Source: a virus
Lineage: Duplodnaviria; Heunggongvirae; Uroviricota; Caudoviricetes
Reading direction: 5' to 3' (one strand)
DNA length: 27,306 bases
IMG/VR virus record: IMGVR_UViG_3300000301_000054
Shown here: piece after piece, positions 2,676 through 20,300 of the stretch
How positions within the stretch are numbered: position 1 is the stretch's first letter
How the letters are laid out: every line of letters begins with the position of its first letter
Translations under genes and position numbers: made by a program
Notes under the pieces: model-generated
What the model saw: the letters and a program-made list of their open reading frames with translations, nothing else
Database searches by the model: none
Told to the model about the DNA's origin: nothing

Positions 2676-4709
2676 TTACTTAACTTGGTGGCCTGGTTTA
2701 GCACCAGCATCCGGGCTTAACAGGAAGATATCTTTTCCGCCAGGGCCAGCAGCCATCACCATGCCTTCAGAGATACCGAAGCGCATTTTACGCGGAGCCA
2801 GGTTAGCCACCATAATTGTGTGACGACCAATCAGTGCCTGTGGGTCTGGATAAGCAGAACGGATGCCTGAGAAGACATTACGCTTTTCACCACCGAGATC
2901 CAGTGTCAGGCGCAACAGTTTGTCAGAACCTTCAACAAACTCCGCGTTTTCAATCAGCGCCACGCGCAGGTCAACTTTGGCGAAGTCATCAAAGGTGATG
3001 GTTTCCTGAATCGGATCGTCTGCCAGCGGGCCAGTAACTGGCGCGGCAGTGGCTTTCACTTCTTCTTTAGAGGCTTCCACCAGTGCTTCAACCTGCTTCA
3101 TGTCGATGCGGTTATACAGTGCTTTGAACGGATTAACTTTGTGCGCCAGCAGCGGTTGCTGGATGCCATCCCAGGTCAGTTCCGTATTGAGGAATGCTTC
3201 TGCACGCTCGGTCAGTTTCGGCAGTACCGGTTTCAGGTACGTCATCAGTACGCGGAACAGGTTAATGCCCATTGAGCAAATCGCCTGCAGGTCGGCATCG
3301 CGACCTTCCTGTTTCGCCACCACCCACGGAGCCTGTTCATCGACATAGCGGTTAGCCAGGTCAGCCAATGCCATGATTTCACGGATAGCTTTACCAAATT
3401 CACGGCTTTCCCATGCTTCGCCAATCACTTCAGCGGCATCAGTAAAGGTTTTGTACAGTTGCGGGTCAGCCAGTTCGCTTGCCAGCACGCCGTCAAAACG
3501 CTTGTTGATAAAGCCTGCATTACGGGAGGCCAGGTTAACCACTTTGTTCACGATATCGGCATTCACGCGCTGAACGAAATCCTCCAGGTTGAGATCGATA
3601 TCATCAATGCGCGAAGAGAGTTTCGCAGTGTAGTAGTAACGCAGGCTGTCAGCGTCAAAATGATTCAGCCAGGTGCTGGCTTTAATAAAGGTGCCGCGAG
3701 ACTTGGACATCTTCGCGCCGTTCACCGTCACATAGCCGTGAACAAACAGGTTGGTCGGCTTGCGGAAGTTGCTGCCTTCCAGCATGGCAGGCCAGAACAG
3801 GCTGTGGAAGTAAACAATATCTTTACCGATGAAGTGGTACAGCTCGGCGGTGGAGTCTTTCTTCCAGTATTCATCGAAGCTGGTGGTATCGCCGCGCTTG
3901 TCGCACAGATTCTTGAAAGAACCCATGTAGCCAATCGGTGCGTCCAGCCAGACGTAGAAGTATTTGCCTGGTGCGTTCGGAATTTCAAAACCGAAGTAAG
4001 GCGCATCGCGGGAGATATCCCACTGTTGCAGGCCGGATTCAAACCACTCCTGCATTTTGTTTGCCACCTGCTCCTGCAACGCGCCGCTGCGGGTCCATGC
4101 CTGCAACATTTCGCTGAAAGAAGGCAGATCAAAGAAGAAGTGTTCGGAATCACGCATTACCGGGGTAGCGCCAGAAACCACCGATTTCGGCTCGATCAAT
4201 TCAGTCGGGCTATATGTTGCGCCGCAGACTTCACAGTTATCGCCGTATTGATCTGGCGCTTTACATTTCGGGCAGGTGCCTTTTACAAAACGATCCGGCA
4301 GGAACATGCCTTTTTCCGGGTCGTACAACTGAGAGATAGTGCGGTTTTTAATAAAACCGTTCTCTTTCAGGCGAGTATAGATAAGCTCAGACAACTGACG
4401 GTTCTCTTCGCTGTGCGTCGAGTGATAGTTGTCATAGCTGATGTTAAAGCCTGCGAAATCAGTCTGGTGTTCCTGACTCATTTCGCCAATCATCTGCTCC
4501 GGTGTGATACCAAGCTGCTGTGCTTTCAGCATGATCGGCGTACCGTGGGCATCGTCGGCACAGATGAAATTAACCTCGTGGCCGCGCATTCGCTGGTAAC
4601 GAACCCAGACATCAGCCTGGATGTGCTCCAGCATATGGCCGAGGTGGATTGAGCCGTTAGCGTACGGCAGCGCGCACGTCACCAGAATTTTCTTCGCGAC
4701 TTGGGTCAT
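2676..4709 (-). CDS. metG: Methionine--tRNA ligase (677 aa)
   Basis: Translation from [29 protein letters not shown] (class I HIGH motif), KMSKS present, C-terminal tRNA-binding domain; near-identical to enterobacterial MetG as recalled. The ORF-track start at 4838 is a 43-codon upstream extension; ATG at 4707..4709 chosen. Confidence 0.95.
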
Positions 4710-4866
4710 AGTAGGCATTACTTCTTTGTAGTGAAAAGGGGCTTGATAGTAACAAAATGGCCTTATGTCTGCCATGTGATAACAGCATTTCTCATAAATG
4801 ATTAAATGTCGTAGCTGGAGTACACTACAAGGCGACAATTGCGCAAATTAAAATAAAGGAGACGGG

Positions 4867-6126
4867 ATGAGCGAGTCCAAATCGCCGGATGCCCTGAGAG
4901 CAATGGTAGCCGGTACGCTGGCTAATTTTCAGCACCCAACCCTGAAACACAACCTGACTACGCTTAAAGCGTTACACCATGTTGCGTTGATGGATGACAC
5001 ACTGCATGTCGAACTAATCATGCCTTTCGTGTGGAATAAGCCTTTTGAAGACCTGAAAGAGCAATGTAGTGGTGATCTGCTCCGTATCACTGGCGCAAAG
5101 GCTATTGACTGGAAGCTGTCGTACAACATTGCCACGCTTAAGCGCGTCAAAAACCAACCAGGCATTAATGGCGTTAAGAACATTATCGCCGTCAGCTCAG
5201 GCAAGGGCGGCGTGGGTAAATCCTCCACAGCGGTAAACCTGGCACTGGCTTTGGCTGCTGAAGGTGCGAAAGTTGGTATTTTGGATGCCGATATCTACGG
5301 GCCATCAATTCCAACCATGCTTGGNNNNNNNNNNNNNNNNNNNNNNNNNNNNNNNNNNNNNNNNNNNNNNNNNNNNNNNNNNNNNNNNNNNNNNNNNNNN
5401 NNNNNNNNNNNNNNNNNNNNNNNNNNCAACTTCACCGGACGGTACTCACATGGCACCGATTATGTCTCATGGCCTGGCAACCAATTCAATTGGTTATCTG
5501 GTCACTGACGACAATGCGATGGTGTGGCGTGGACCGATGGCCAGCAAGGCGCTGATGCAGATGTTGCAGGAAACACTGTGGCCTGATCTGGACTATCTCG
5601 TTCTCGATATGCCGCCGGGCACTGGTGATATTCAGTTGACGNNNNNNNNNNNNNNNNNNNNNNNNNNNNNNNNNNNNNNNNNNNNNNNNNNNNNNNNNNN
5701 NNNNNNNNNNNNNNNNNNNNNNNNNNNNNNNNNNNNNNNNNNNNNNNNNNNNNNNNNNNNNNNNNNNNCATCGCGCTGATCGATGCGAAGAAAGGCATTG
5801 TGATGTTCGAAAAAGTCGAAGTGCCGGTACTAGGTATCGTCGAAAACATGAGTGTGCATATTTGCAGTAACTGCGGTCATCACGAGCCAATTTTTGGCAC
5901 CGGTGGCGCACAGAAACTGGCCGAGAAATACAACACGCAGTTGTTAGGCCAAATGCCTCTTCATATCTCTCTTCGTGAAGATCTGGATAACGGAACACCA
6001 ACCGTTATTAGTCGTCCAGATAGCGAATTTACGGCTATTTATCGTGACCTCGCAGATCGCGTTGCTGCCCAAATGTATTGGCAAGGTGAAGTAATACCTG
6101 GCGAAATCGCATTCCGCGCAGTGTGA
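4867..6126 (+). CDS. apbC: Fe-S cluster carrier ATPase ApbC/Mrp (interrupted by N runs 5325..5426 and 5642..5768)
   Basis: Three segments read [16 protein letters not shown]...[21 protein letters not shown] (deviant Walker A), [15 protein letters not shown]...[12 protein letters not shown], and ...[16 protein letters not shown]...EIAFRAV; segments fall in different frames only because of the N runs. Confidence 0.9.
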
Positions 6127-6132
6127 TAAAAA

Positions 6133-6151
6133 GGCGGTGCAATGCACCGCC
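6133..6151. terminator. Hairpin GGCGGTGC-AAT-GCACCGCC between convergent apbC and the UmuD'-like gene; U-tract on the minus-strand side
   Basis: Perfect 8-bp GC-rich stem; flanked by AAAAA on plus (TTTTT on the minus transcript). Confidence 0.6.
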
Positions 6152-6163
6152 TAATCAGTTCTC

Positions 6164-6626
6164 CTACATCACGGGACAATCATCAAACTCGCCACTTCTT
6201 GCGTCGTTGATAATGTGAGTGATCACACCAAACACGGCATTGCTGCCCGTGCATCCATCGTCATCCTTTGGCAATGCTTCCTTCTTACCGGTTCTTAAAT
6301 CCTCCAGATGCTGACGTGGGTACTTCCGGTATCTTTTTNNNNNNNNNNNNNNNNNNNNNNNNNNNNNNNNNNNNNNNNNNNNNNNNNNNNNNNNNNNNNN
6401 NNNNNNNNNNNNNGCGATATTCCCCATCCAGAGCGCATACAAGCAGAGAACCATCAACCGGGGTAAGTGAGGAATCGACCACCAGCAATGCACCCTGTAA
6501 TATTCCCTCACGATGATGACTATCAGCTGCCCTCATGAAGTAGGTCGCTGAAGGATGTCTAATTATCTGCTGATCAAGAGAAATACGGCTCTCAGCATAA
6601 TCCGCCGCAGGAGAAGGGAAGCCCAT
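6164..6626 (-). CDS. UmuD'-like S24-peptidase-domain protein, N-terminally truncated at the position of the UmuD cleavage site (interrupted by N run 6339..6413)
   Basis: Starts MGFPSPAADYAESRISLDQQIIRHPSATYF...LLVVDSSLTPVDGSLLVCALDGEY, aligning to UmuD from Gly25 onward; C-terminal segment ...AVFGVITHIINDA matches the UmuD C-terminus; SD AAGAGG upstream. Confidence 0.7.
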
Positions 6627-6641
6627 AATACTCGCCTCTTA

Positions 6642-9486: not shown

Positions 9487-10111
9487 TGGATGACTCCTTT
9501 ACGAAGCAGTTCAGCAATACTTACGCATATCTCTGCGCCTCTAATCAGCCCCGGAACGTTCTTGTTTGGCCCAACTTCACCATCAACAAAATCAATCATC
9601 GCGTTACGAGCCATATCCACGCCCTGCGCACGTACTTCAGCCAGAAAAGCATCGGTGGCTGGAGTTTCTATGCACTGCATTTCATGCAATGTCTGCATGT
9701 CCATAAAATCCCCGTCAGGCTCTGTGATAGTGGCGTTATATGCCGAGTAAATTTTTGACGCTTCATGTGNNNNNNNNNNNNNNNNNNNNNNNNNNNNNNN
9801 NNNNNNNNNNNNNNNNNNNNNNNNNNNNNNNNNNNNNNNNNNNNNNNNNNNNNCGCAGCCTTAGATCGCAATGCCACATTCTCCGCCGCTAATGCGTCTC
9901 TCTGCGCCCGCAACTTCTCAATTTCGGCAGCCATGTAGTAACCAACCATAGCGAAGACGGCAAAAGAGTTGTCTGCCTCATCAGGCGACACTGAGGCCAT
10001 TAGCAGGCCATCGTAAAAATCGTGACTCCCATTGGTGATCGCCACCGCATAGGAGTCGTGGTTCTCGCGCTTGTGAATGAGAACTACGGGATTTTCGATT
10101 TTGTTACTCAT
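9483..10111 (-). CDS. Hypothetical phage early protein (interrupted by N run 9770..9853)
   Basis: N-terminal segment from ATG at 10111; C-terminal segment ends at 9483 overlapping the next start; coiled-coil EIEKLRAQRDALAAENVALRSKAA. Confidence 0.45.
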
Positions 10112-11475: not shown

Positions 11476-12095
11476 TCATTTAACGCGTTTGAAAACGTAT
11501 ACGCTGACTGTGATCCCGGTATCTTCAAACTCGTTGGTAAACGACTTCCCTCTGGCATAAACGTAATTATCCATCGTCATCCAGCTCAGGATTGGCGCAG
11601 TGCCCGGCAATACTGCTACAAGACGCCCGCCGACTTTCAGATGCCCCAGCGCAGCCAGCGTGTGCTCTCTATGACGACCAAGCGAGTACGGCGGGTTCAT
11701 AACGATTTTGTCGAACTGATAACCTGCGTTGTCCTCAGACCACTTTATGAAGTCGCAGCAAATCGTGTTCGTATACCCTTTTCCACGCAGGATATCAGCG
11801 AAGAGAGGTGCGATTTCTATGCAGGTAACATCTTCCAGATCGGCGTTAATATAGGCCAGAAGATCCCCACGTCCGGCTTGAGGCTCAAGCAGCTTCTCAC
11901 CAGGCTTCAATTCAGTGGCTCTGGCAACGTACTCAGCAATCAAGCGTGGGGTAGGGTAGAACTGGTGTGATTTTGTATCCGGTATTAAACCGGTAGCCAC
12001 AATCGTATTTAGCGTATGGCCGATGTCATACGGGAACTGCCAGTGCTTTTTCTCCTGCACGCCGCCAATGAAGCTCAGTGTGCGCTCAAGCTCTT
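11476..12095 (-). CDS. N6-adenine DNA methyltransferase catalytic domain (gamma-type motif order); 5' end lost in N run 12096..12220
   Basis: FYPTP (motif X), LEPQAGRGDLL (SAM-binding motif I), IVMNPPYS (motif IV NPPY); reading frame stays open upstream into the gap. Confidence 0.6.
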
Positions 12096-12509
12096 NNNNN
12101 NNNNNNNNNNNNNNNNNNNNNNNNNNNNNNNNNNNNNNNNNNNNNNNNNNNNNNNNNNNNNNNNNNNNNNNNNNNNNNNNNNNNNNNNNNNNNNNNNNNN
12201 NNNNNNNNNNNNNNNNNNNNTGTCTTTGCTCAATCGCCCGTCACGAAGCGCAGTGCGAACCGGCACGGAGATCGTCTTCTGGATTAACCCGAACTGCTTT
12301 GGTGCCCGTGTTTTTGGCGCAGTTCGGCATGGCGCGGGAATTGCAGCAGGCATACTGTAAGCCAGCACCTCATTCAACTTCCAGGCCACGTCAGGATGTA
12401 TTTCAAAGTGAACGTTGCCGTTNNNNNNNNNNNNNNNNNNNNNNNNNNNNNNNNNNNNNNNNNNNNNNNNNNNNNNNNNNNNNNNNNNNNNNNNNNNNNN
12501 NNNNNNNNN

Positions 12510-13320
12510 ACATCTTCACGCGCATCAGATTTCCATCGACGTTCATCCAGTCACCGGTCTGGCAGTCGTTTGCCCGATACGCAGCTGATAGCACCTCAGC
12601 AGTGCGGTTGATGGTAATAAATTCTTTGTGCGCGAAGAAATGAAGCAAGACACGCAGATCGTCGATGTAGTCCTCTTTGCGATAGTTCACGCTAACGCTG
12701 TCCCGCCAGAAATCAGAAATGCAGTCAGCGATTATCAGCCGCTCGCTGAAACCGTTTGTCTTATTTGTCTTGTGCGCAGGACTCAGCGCCTTAAACAAGC
12801 CATACACGCGCTCAGAGAGATATTTGTGCCTGTCATTCAGCAAATTAAGCATCGTGGGTATGACCGTTTCTGCTTTGAACTCCGGTACACCAACGAACTC
12901 TTTAACCTTCATCTGGTAGCCGGTTCTGTCAGTTTTGATGACTTCCTGTTTGCCCTCTATAAACTGCTCGCGCCACTCATCTCGACGGGAAGCTGGCATG
13001 ATCAGCAAAACGTTAGTCATGTCCGTGACCTTCCTCCAGTACTCGGCCCAAATATTCTGTTTCACCCATTCCAGATCGACTTTATCCAACCAACCTCGAT
13101 TTAAACGCGAGCGATCTTCATCTGGTCGATGGTTTAGTCTCAGCAGGCGATTAATCATGTTGTGGCGTTCGTCGCCATAAACGAAGTCGTGAACCTGATA
13201 CATGAAGGCGATCTCTTTCTCGCACTCGGCCACAATTTCGTGGATGACGTTCATTTCCTGCCGATAGTCGATAGCAGTGTTTGAGTTGGCATCGTCGATG
13301 ATGGAAAGGGCTGTATTCAT
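12510..13320 (-). CDS. Hypothetical protein (at least 270 aa), truncated by N run 12423..12509; immediately upstream of the methyltransferase
   Basis: Long ORF from ATG at 13320 running into the gap; no motif I can assign. Confidence 0.5.
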
Positions 13321-13423
13321 AATTGCACCATTAAGAAGTGATTTGTTTAATGGTGCAATTATTTCAAAAATGAAAAGGTACTAAATAGAAATAAACAGGC
13401 AATCCTTCAAATAAAGGCATTGG

Positions 13424-15196: not shown

Positions 15197-15202
15197 TCAT
15201 TA

Positions 15203-15358
15203 ACACGTTGCTTTACGGACTAGCGGATAAGCGAAGTAGATCGCCAGACCAATGAGGACGCCATCAGAAATGACAGACATCATCTTTCCCGTAAAATCCA
15301 CCAACACCGCCATCACCAGAAGAGCAATGACGATCACAAGCCGGAATCTCTCAAGCAT
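15203..15358 (-). CDS. Candidate small hydrophobic protein (about 51 aa, MLERFRLVIVIALLVMAVLV...), start overlapping the stop of the TerB-like gene
   Basis: ATG at 15356..15358 overlaps the TerB-like gene stop (15358..15360) by 1 nt; two hydrophobic stretches. Confidence 0.35.
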
Positions 15359-15783
15359 TAGAGATAAGCATCCAGTGACAACTGAAGCGCCTGGGCGATC
15401 TTTTTAAGTGCCTGCTCTTCTTGTTCACCAATGCCGTCCTGATCGGCAATATCAAGGCACAGACACAGTACATCTACTGCATCATTAGTCCCGGCCACAT
15501 CAGCCAGCTCACGTAAAGCCTGGGCATTAGCGCGGCGCGGTGAGGCTTCGTATTGAGCACGGATATTGGCGCTCATTTGGGCAATCTCACCAGCAAACGG
15601 AGAAAACGCAGGCAGAGCTGCAATTGTTTTCTCAAGAATGGAAATTTCCTTTGCGTCGCATGTGCCATCGGCATAGGAGATCATGTACGCGCCCCACACG
15701 GTGGCTTCAACCGCATCTCGGTTCTCCATTTTTTTGACCTCGATAACAGCTTTACGAGTTTTCTTTTTGAATAAACCTAACAT
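15358..15783 (-). CDS. TerB-like (tellurite-resistance TerB fold) protein
   Basis: Duplicated ADG-type motifs MISYADGTCDAKEISILE and LDIADQDGIGEQEEQALKKIAQALQL typical of TerB-like domains; palindromic element and AAGGAA SD in leader. Confidence 0.55.
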   Translation of the reverse strand: MLGLFKKKTRKAVIEVKKMENRDAVEATVWGAYMISYADGTCDAKEISILEKTIAALPAFSPFAGEIAQMSANIRAQYEASPRRANAQALRELADVAGTNDAVDVLCLCLDIADQDGIGEQEEQALKKIAQALQLSLDAYL

Positions 15784-18221: not shown

Positions 18222-18418
18222 AAAATCGATTTTAAAGCGTCTGGGAAGGGGTTCTAGTGGATTCTGTAGTGGTGTTCAGGTCTGGGAGTCTCTGATATAA
18301 AACAGCCTGCTTCCGTATATTAATAATTAATATGTAGTTATTTATATATACAGAAGCAGGCTAATTACAGACGCCAGAACAAACTAAGCAGCCTTCTTTG
18401 ATGGTCTTTTTTTCCTGA

Positions 18419-19131
18419 TCACATTCGCAGGATCATANNNNNNNNNNNNNNNNNNNNNNNNNNNNNNNNNNNNNNNNNNNNNNNNNNNNNNNNNNNNNNN
18501 NNNNNNNNNNNNNNNNNNNNNNNNNNNNNNNNNNNNNNNNNNNNNNNNNNNNNNNNNNNNNNNNNNNNNNNNNNNNNNNNNNNNNNNNNNNNNNNNNNGA
18601 GCATACTGCCACCGGGGTTGATGTTTACTTCTACCTGACCCAAATTGACGTCAGGCTCGACAAACGCTACGCGGCCACCAGACAGAATAATCGTCTCATT
18701 CGCACACTCTGTTGCACGCTCATACCACTTTGTATCGAGGGATTGAGGAATTAGCATCACTGTTGTAACTCCGCGAGCCTNNNNNNNNNNNNNNNNNNNN
18801 NNNNNNNNNNNNNNNNNNNNNNNNNNNNNNNNNNNNNNNNNNNNNNNNNNNNNNNNNNNNNNNNNNNNNNATCAATCCAGGGGGAGATTTTGGAGTAGGG
18901 TGGATTGAGGAAGGCAATTGTACCTGGCTGTCCCCATTCAGATTTCAAAGCATCACGCTCAACGCCTATGAAATTAGGCAGCTTCGCATTGTCCTTGTTG
19001 CAGGCAACGTCAACATCAAATGTCACTCCAAGATAACGTTGAATGGCAGAAAACAGCCAGTCAGGTGTTCTCCAGAGGTCACGAAGAGAGTTGTCGCGCT
19101 TTCGCTGTTTGATTTTTTCGGCTGCAATCAT
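18419..19131 (-). CDS. Phage Dam-family N6-adenine DNA methyltransferase (interrupted by N runs 18438..18598 and 18781..18870)
   Basis: WRTPDWLF, DVACNKDNAK and NPPYS match the phage Dam (N-6-adenine methyltransferase) family as recalled. Confidence 0.6.
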
Positions 19132-19314: not shown

Positions 19315-20300
19315 TCATCCAATAGTGTACTCCGCTACAAACTTCTTAACGATCGGTGATTCTTCGTTCAATGTTAGATTTCCACCGTCTCTAACGGCAA
19401 CTCCTGTCGCTGGAAATACAGCCATCATTTGCCCAGCCTGAGTTGACGCAGTGTTAAGCGGATACGGTTTTTCTGGATTGCTCATTAAAGCAATCTTAAT
19501 ACTATTACTTGTAGCCTTCTTTTCTGTGAGAAGGTGTCTCATGGAAATTACCGTGTAAACACTAATGTCTGGACCTCCGCTAAACCAATTAAGAAGGTTT
19601 AATATCTTATCCTTTGCTTTGACAGGCGCGTTTTCGTAAGCGTCTAAGAAAATATCTGTTTCTAAGCCTGCTTTATTGAAAAACGAATCATCTTTATCAC
19701 TTAAAGTAAAACGAGGACCTCTTGCAGTACGCGCTTTTTTATTTGTGTTGCTATCATTTGACTGTTGAACTTTTAATTCATCATTAACATCAACACACTC
19801 TTCAACCTCAATCAATCCCAATTGTTCTGGCTCGTTTTCGGCAGATTCAACACTTTCAGCGTTAATTACGTTTATAGGCTCATGCGCTAACTCCAACTCA
19901 TTTAAAGCAGAGCTGAAATCACNNNNNNNNNNNNNNNNNNNNNNNNNNNNNNNNNNNNNNNNNNNNNNNNNNNNNNNNNNNNNNNNNNNNNNNNNNNNNN
20001 NNNNNNNNNNNTGCTTTTTCTTCATTGAACAGTTCTTCGGCAACATCATCAGAACTCATGGCTACGCCAGCATCGAGGCCGAGCAGCAGATCGTCAATAT
20101 CATCAGTATTTTCAACCTGTGCGGCTTTTTTTACTGGTTCATCAAGTGATTGCAACATGGCTGTCAGCTCGTCCAGATCATCATTTGTCATTACATTTNN
20201 NNNNNNNNNNNNNNNNNNNNNNNNNNNNNNNNNNNNNNNNNNNNNNNNNNNNNNNNNNNNNNNNNNNNNNNNNNNNNNNNNNNNNNTCAACCGAACTCAT
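19315..20300 (-). CDS. Hypothetical highly acidic protein (interrupted by N runs 19923..20011 and 20199..20286)
   Basis: ATG at 20300 with AGGAGA SD; acidic segments on both sides of the gaps. Confidence 0.4.

Follow-up and report, generated by a model that had tools for sequence, protein, structure and literature searches.

The window analyzed here, the 27,306-nucleotide (nt) Caudoviricetes record IMGVR_UViG_3300000301_000054 of IMG/VR, contains on its minus strand a region, 11476..13320, that appears to be one gene, its apparent split being an artifact of padded masks. The gene is probably that of a 561-amino-acid (aa) solitary S-adenosylmethionine (SAM)-dependent N6-adenine DNA methyltransferase of an SSU5-like phage-plasmid, which protects the DNA of the element. 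According to this explanation, the C-terminal 167 aa would constitute a stripped-down gamma-class catalytic domain with a TP-capped helix, a SAM-binding loop, and an NPPY motif, while the N-terminal ~390 aa (a core of the DUF4942 family, a basic proline-rich linker, and a variable alpha/beta middle domain) would supply substrate engagement; the enzyme would methylate the element's own DNA, and host restriction systems would cut that DNA less. The comparisons given below directly support a single open reading frame (ORF) and its domain architecture, the conservation of both the catalytic motifs and the fusion, and the lack of a nuclease or S-subunit partner. The 3-kb stretch around the gene was 99.5% identical to Escherichia phage Cyrano, 99.2 to 99.4% identical to Escherichia coli plasmids of ~108 to 115 kb, and ~90% identical to Salmonella phage SSU5, identities that place the window within an SSU5-like phage-plasmid.

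In the window as given, the region consists of three readable segments, each in a different frame. The segment 11476..12093 is open through to the stop codon and carries the methyltransferase motifs, 12511..13320 is a 270-aa open stretch with an ATG start, and 12222..12422, between two runs of N, is open in a third frame. Because of this middle segment, the region resembles separate genes, and a sequence-only reading of the window had described a methyltransferase segment adjoining a separate protein. We used Cyrano and the plasmid pNT1F31-113kb (relatives with 99.3 to 99.5% identity) as the reference for the lengths of the N runs. The runs exceeded the sequence in the relatives by 77 nt (12096-12220; 77 mod 3 = 2) and 82 nt (12423-12509; 82 mod 3 = 1), and the frame offsets seen were exactly those produced by the padding. 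At the relatives' lengths, all three segments fall into a single frame and form a coding sequence of 1686 nt and 561 aa, the length found both in Cyrano (L001:12477-14162) and in pNT1F31-113kb, and the two padded runs account for the additional 159 nt of the 1845 nt in the window. The visible part of the window matched the database protein P0001 without a mismatch over aa 1-270 and with 2 mismatches over aa 357-561, and the middle fragment corresponded to residues 273-339 in Cyrano. The masks cover 19 residues, which are known from the relatives and are not visible in the window itself.

The same padding was found elsewhere in the window, which has 17 N runs (for example, 750-956, 5642-5768, 6339-6413, 9770-9853, 18438-18598, 19923-20011, and 20199-20286). 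Eleven of the 17 could be anchored in Cyrano, and all 11 were longer than the replaced sequence by 47 to 88 nt, with some standing for merely 0 to 7 nt. Therefore, N-run length here holds no frame information, and ORF, frame, or gene-boundary calls that span any mask in this window are unreliable. The technical lesson is that frame breaks across these N runs are no evidence of separate genes, pseudogenes, or fusions. It is thus very improbable that the region holds two genes, a stand-alone protein of 270+ aa and a short methyltransferase complemented in trans: the different frames of the three segments, which speak for such an arrangement, match the padding exactly, and a single uninterrupted ORF is present in the relatives, for which the arrangement is refuted, as well as in homologs down to ~34% identity. 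The 270-aa stretch, formerly taken as a protein of its own, is the N-terminal part of the same polypeptide, and the earlier question of whether the two ORFs are fused was answered in the affirmative.

When only the N-terminal 270 aa were searched against 1.84 billion representative proteins, at least 400 clusters were returned, and 110 of the 113 listed full-length matches (at least 450 aa) carried NPP[YFW] 62 to 87 residues from the C terminus. As far as these sequences indicate, the DUF4942-methyltransferase fusion is the rule for the family. The short matches, mostly on short contigs, look like fragments, and look-ups of the clusters gave generic names only. Full-length homologs reach phages of Aeromonas, Pseudomonas, and Marinomonas and were also found in prophages of a Variovorax and of an enterobacterium. 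PHROG 6263 ("DNA methyltransferase") matched the protein end to end, and the middle and methyltransferase domains together matched phrog_9133 (aa 328-560; E, 2e-50). The possibility that recombination had joined N- and C-terminal halves of different origin in a sharp mosaic was considered and rejected, as identity falls only gradually along the protein.

The catalytic domain was identified by its motifs. The minus-strand segment 11476..12093 reads HQFYPTP, then LLEPQAGRGDLL, then NPPY, and then the stop codon. Motif X (QFYPTP) occupies 11947-11964 (aa 400-405), motif I (LLEPQAGRGDL) occupies 11860-11892, with LEPQAGRGDL at aa 425-434, and motif IV (NPPY) occupies 11686-11697 (aa 489-492). The motifs X (FYPTP), I (LEPQAGRGDLL), and IV (NPPY) previously reported in 11476..12095 are thus present on the minus strand in that order, which is the order of the gamma class. 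The positions of FYP, P405, and NPP were invariant in 33 homologs with identities down to ~34%. In an AlphaFold (AF2) model built with these 33 homologs (predicted local distance difference test score [pLDDT], 82.9; predicted template modeling score [pTM], 0.69), T404 and P405 cap the helix 406-416, which is followed by the strand 424-427. A TP motif capping the helix before the Rossmann core is a signature of EcoKI/TaqI-like DNA adenine methyltransferases (Iyer et al., PMC5512222).

The protein ends 69 aa past NPPY, close to the family median of 69.5, and it therefore has no C-terminal recognition domain. We also examined six independent genomic contexts of the gene (the window, two lambdoid-type prophages, a 116-kb plasmid-like contig, a 97-kb terminase-bearing contig, and a helicase-primase module), and neither a nuclease nor an hsdS-like gene for a specificity subunit was present in any of them. 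M.TaqI has a C-terminal recognition domain of ~180 aa and HsdM has an S subunit, whereas the DUF4942 protein has neither and carries ~390 N-terminal aa instead. Since the domain lacks both a C-terminal recognition domain and a specificity subunit, substrate engagement would have to come from these N-terminal ~390 aa, and the N-terminal region likely engages the substrate. Two proposals of the sequence-only reading were borne out: the NPPY domain has no room for a target-recognition domain of its own, and the part it lacks belongs to the "upstream protein," which is the fused N terminus. The middle domain (aa 320-394), whose sequence varies more than that of any other structured part, and the loop 526-540 are better candidates for specificity than the DUF4942 core, which may or may not be the sequence reader itself.

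Several comparisons bear on the substrate. In a search with the profile of the domain against sequences of solved structures, the DNA adenine methyltransferases 7vru (E, 4e-6), M.TaqI (6e-6), and EcoR124 HsdM (7.5e-6) ranked first, while rRNA methyltransferases followed at 2e-4 or weaker and METTL5 had an E value of 0.13. When the full protein was compared with Protein Data Bank (PDB) sequences, M.TaqI alone was found (E, 0.16). The best PADLOC match to the catalytic module was mad2, the methyltransferase of the MADS system (E, 1.2e-15), deletion of which abolishes N6-methyladenine (m6A) at TCAGNNNNTCC (bioRxiv 10.1101/2023.03.30.534895). In contrast to the gene described here, which is solitary and on a phage-plasmid, mad2 is part of an eight-gene defense system, recognizes a bipartite site, and has an N-terminal part unlike DUF4942. 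A related module was also found inside giant virion proteins, one of them annotated as DarB-like antirestriction. These DarB-like modules, which belong to polyvalent virion proteins (P1 DarB archetype; PLxRFG), were 35 to 40% identical over ~120 aa, with PHROG E values of 1e-14 to 1e-19, while P1 DarB itself gave no match at E 1e-5 or better. The DarB-like proteins have in common with the gene a mobile-element setting and a presumed antirestriction role (PMC5512222). However, they are 1400 to 3900 aa long, fused to a superfamily 2 (SF2) helicase and LPD36, and packaged in the virion, and the protein studied here, with 561 aa, no helicase, and DUF4942, does not belong to this group.

Because of the TP signature, the profile ranking of DNA methyltransferases, the mad2 match, and the presence of the module in giant virion proteins, DNA is the likeliest substrate, and we infer that the product is m6A and that the N-terminal region is a DNA-engaging module. 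Alternatively, the protein could be an N6-adenine or related amino-methyltransferase of RNA (rRNA or tRNA), with DUF4942 as a module docking to RNA or ribonucleoprotein, that modifies host translation or evades RNA-targeting defenses. We consider this rather improbable, as the profile put DNA adenine methyltransferases ~40-fold ahead of the best rRNA enzyme, the best match in the defense library is a gene needed for m6A in DNA, the module is common to virion proteins that Iyer et al. (PMC5512222) assigned to DNA adenine methyltransferases, and the gene is found near replication genes and other DNA methyltransferases.

Some results weigh against a DNA methyltransferase with an N-terminal DNA-engaging part. 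The Pfam family N6_Mtase (PF02384) scored below its gathering cutoff of 20.4 bits with both the full protein (13.8 bits) and the domain alone (17.8 bits), and it matched just 8 of the 33 homologs at an E value of <0.01; RrnaAD and MTS also remained below their cutoffs with the methyltransferase part. Additionally, no basic character was seen in the N-terminal region: the median net charge of the DUF4942 core was 0, and the protein as a whole was acidic, net charge per domain being judged nondiagnostic. The core is conserved as strongly as the catalytic motifs, unlike a typical variable recognition domain. Finally, the full-text literature on DUF4942 or PF13708 yielded no functional data or experiment on any member, the family appearing only within gene lists, for example, beside KlcA, RadC, and a YeeU/YeeV module in the Shigella SRL island; likewise, no functional data were found in the literature on methyltransferases and methylomes of SSU5 or pHCM2.

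The assignment of the N-terminal region to DUF4942 was clear. PF13708 matched aa 140-295 with 74 bits against a gathering threshold of 25 (E, 1.6e-20), and DUF4942 was matched in all 33 homologs. The invariant polar residues of the core include H183, T185, N186, D221, R223, D262, H277, and H281, and among SSU5-like elements the core has changed more slowly than the methyltransferase half has. Sequence variation is concentrated in aa 1-90, 121-135, and 316-375 and in the loop 526-540. Within the N-terminal region, a beta-hairpin at aa 121-145 (window, ~12886-12960) is an indel hotspot, missing in two distant homologs and extended by up to ~25 residues in the Variovorax protein, and may be a surface element under diversification. 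The N-terminal ~390 aa were modeled confidently, yet without a match among solved structures, and a Foldseek search against BFVD found two uncharacterized viral proteins only, which was uninformative. The invariant His and Asp residues were also considered as part of a PD-(D/E)xK or dioxygenase-like site, which was rejected for want of fold support.

This pattern of conservation would also suit a bifunctional protein, in which the DUF4942 core would not recognize the target but would either bind a ligand or catalyze a reaction of its own, as a sensor or enzyme does, or serve as an adaptor that tethers the methyltransferase to the replisome or to a packaging partner. The invariant H183, N186, D221, R223, D262, H277, and H281, the slow evolution of the core, the location of variable parts elsewhere (aa 316-375 and 526-540), and the unmatched fold all fit such a role, for which partner-dependent plasmid methyltransferases offer a precedent (PMC7736820), an adaptor recalling the association of M.EcoGIX with DNA polymerase I. 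Nevertheless, neither fold nor profile searches linked DUF4942 to any enzyme or binding domain, no conserved neighboring partner gene was found in the contexts examined, and we regard a bifunctional protein as unlikely; it is, moreover, compatible with the methyltransferase explanation and not exclusive of it. A further, tentative and somewhat doubtful proposal is that DUF4942 is a module of new fold, not a classical variable recognition domain, that gives a minimal gamma-type domain an unusual mode of action on the DNA of the element, for example, through low-specificity or replication- or entry-coupled m6A directed against many restriction systems or through a second activity of the His/Asp/Arg cluster. 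If true, the phage and plasmid methyltransferases of this kind would form a distinct architectural class with hundreds of sequence clusters.

The settings of the gene are consistent with a solitary methyltransferase of mobile elements that protects their DNA. In all six contexts, the gene lay in the replication or early region of a mobile element, and another DNA methyltransferase was adjacent in three of them. A restriction-modification system of Type II or IIG was not indicated, as there was neither a nuclease domain in the protein nor an adjacent endonuclease gene, in agreement with the earlier remark that no cognate endonuclease is evident. Antirestriction self-methylation remains a reasonable inference, and the findings weigh neither for nor against an epigenetic switch. 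A functional analogy is offered by M.EcoGIX and M.BceJIII, promiscuous single-strand-specific m6A methyltransferases of plasmids that are likewise solitary on a mobile element, M.EcoGIX being a plasmid methyltransferase that shields entering DNA from restriction (PMC7736820). The analogy goes no further; both are beta-class enzymes with DPPY, in contrast to the gamma order with NPPY found here, and their architecture is not homologous, and M.EcoGIX was rejected as a relative on account of its class and motif.

The second methyltransferase gene of the window, that of a phage Dam-family enzyme, is real and lies ~5 to 6 kb away, as had been claimed, but its span is 18384..19131 and not 18419..19131, reaching 35 nt further at the 3' end. 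It passed the cutoffs of both PF05869 (131.8 bits against 28.1; E, 2.5e-38) and TIGR01712 (113.9 against 97.05), carries NPPY, and is an ordinary full-length member of the phage Dam family, with no difference seen. In the window, the gene is broken by two padded N runs into ORF fragments of 113 and 124 aa. Relatives were present in 1294 phage records, and Dam-type and DUF4942 genes co-occurred in all 12 SSU5-like phage records matched. The coordinates of the features are listed in Table 1.

Table 1. Positions in the window of the predicted DUF4942-methyltransferase gene, its parts, and other features
Feature	Position	Strand	Basis
Whole gene, read as one ORF; 561-aa DUF4942-methyltransferase fusion	11476..13320	-	Coding sequence of relatives; PHROG 6263 over full length, E 1e-299
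aa 1-90, variable acidic N-terminal extension, mostly helical, long helix aa 15-48	13051..13320	-	AF2 model; high column entropy; median net charge -5
aa 91-295 (core to about 300), conserved alpha/beta DUF4942 core	12354..13050	-	Pfam PF13708 at aa 140-295 (12354-12903)
aa 297-319, basic proline-rich linker (PAAIPAPCRTAPKTRAPKQFGLI)	12282..12350	-	Median isoelectric point 10.1 across 33 homologs
aa 320-394, small alpha/beta middle domain, holds N run 12096-12220	11980..12281	-	AF2 model; column entropy
aa 395-561, minimal gamma-type (EcoKI/TaqI-like) amino-methyltransferase domain, 167-aa Rossmann	11479..11979	-	Motifs X, I, and IV; AF2 model
Padded N run	12096..12220		125 N for 48 nt in relatives (aa ~340-356, KGVWYFSDSALQKSQVE)
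Padded N run	12423..12509		87 N for 5 nt in relatives (CTTGA on plus strand); Phe-Lys junction, aa 271-272
Perfect 16-bp hairpin/palindrome, 12-nt loop	13319..13362	-	RNA fold -27.4 kcal/mol, z -3.6
Second methyltransferase, phage Dam-family N6-adenine, 197 aa in relatives	18384..19131	-	PF05869; TIGR01712; mapping

The hairpin at 13319..13362 buries the AU of the methyltransferase start codon together with a GGUG element that resembles a Shine-Dalgarno sequence. Its 3' arm, which contains the ribosome-binding site, is conserved, but the 5' arm is kept neither in SSU5 nor in Klebsiella phage pJN2-26. For this reason, the hairpin was rejected as a conserved regulator and is at most a lineage-specific translational hairpin or operator. 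Promoter and terminator signals between 11300 and 13500 did not exceed the shuffled expectation. In SSU5 (L006, ~5270-5290) and pJN2-26 (L007, ~3905-3925), a different, GC-rich hairpin, AGGGGGCGAAAGCCCCC, separates the methyltransferase gene from the gene upstream of it and, with a run of T behind it in SSU5, resembles an intrinsic terminator. No such hairpin occurs in the E. coli lineage, to which the window belongs, so that transcription of the gene may be insulated differently from one lineage to another.

The genes around the methyltransferase are on the minus strand almost throughout and make up the DNA- and nucleotide-metabolism region of the element, which encodes RNase H, an exonuclease, dihydrofolate reductase (DHFR), ThyX, polynucleotide kinase (PNK), MazG, ribonucleotide reductase, methionyl-tRNA synthetase (MetRS), an S24 peptidase, and Ea-like genes. 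Eight neighboring proteins in the SSU5-like region had no Pfam matches. Upstream of the Ea-like genes, a full-length MetRS, a MinD/ApbC-like ATPase, and the LexA-like S24 peptidase are encoded side by side (Cyrano, L001, 4068-7786; window, ~2676-6630), an aminoacyl-tRNA synthetase being an uncommon cargo for a phage-plasmid. Homologs of P1 TciA and TciB (tellurite/colicin resistance; a TerB-like protein plus DUF3927) were observed ~2 kb upstream of the methyltransferase gene (L001, 15928-16511; window, ~15200-15783). SSU5-like phage-plasmids are common in E. coli, Salmonella, and Klebsiella, and some bear resistance genes.

The gene is already catalogued: the same proteins are found in RefSeq, PHROGs, and Pfam, and it is an ordinary part of SSU5-like phage-plasmids. 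The annotated orthologs, SSU5_095 of SSU5 ("putative DNA modification methylase"), CYRAN_90 of Cyrano, and WP_156262527.1 of pNT1F31-113kb (PHROG 6263; DUF4942), are alike in position, length (561 aa), and neighbors, with 92 to 99% protein identity and no difference of substance; in Cyrano and RefSeq the annotation is "DUF4942 domain-containing protein." Overall, phage and plasmid methyltransferases in at least 400 sequence clusters appear to rely on an N-terminal DUF4942 module, and the remaining interest lies in the fold and role of DUF4942, in the recognition sequence, and in whether the enzyme helps these elements to cross restriction barriers.
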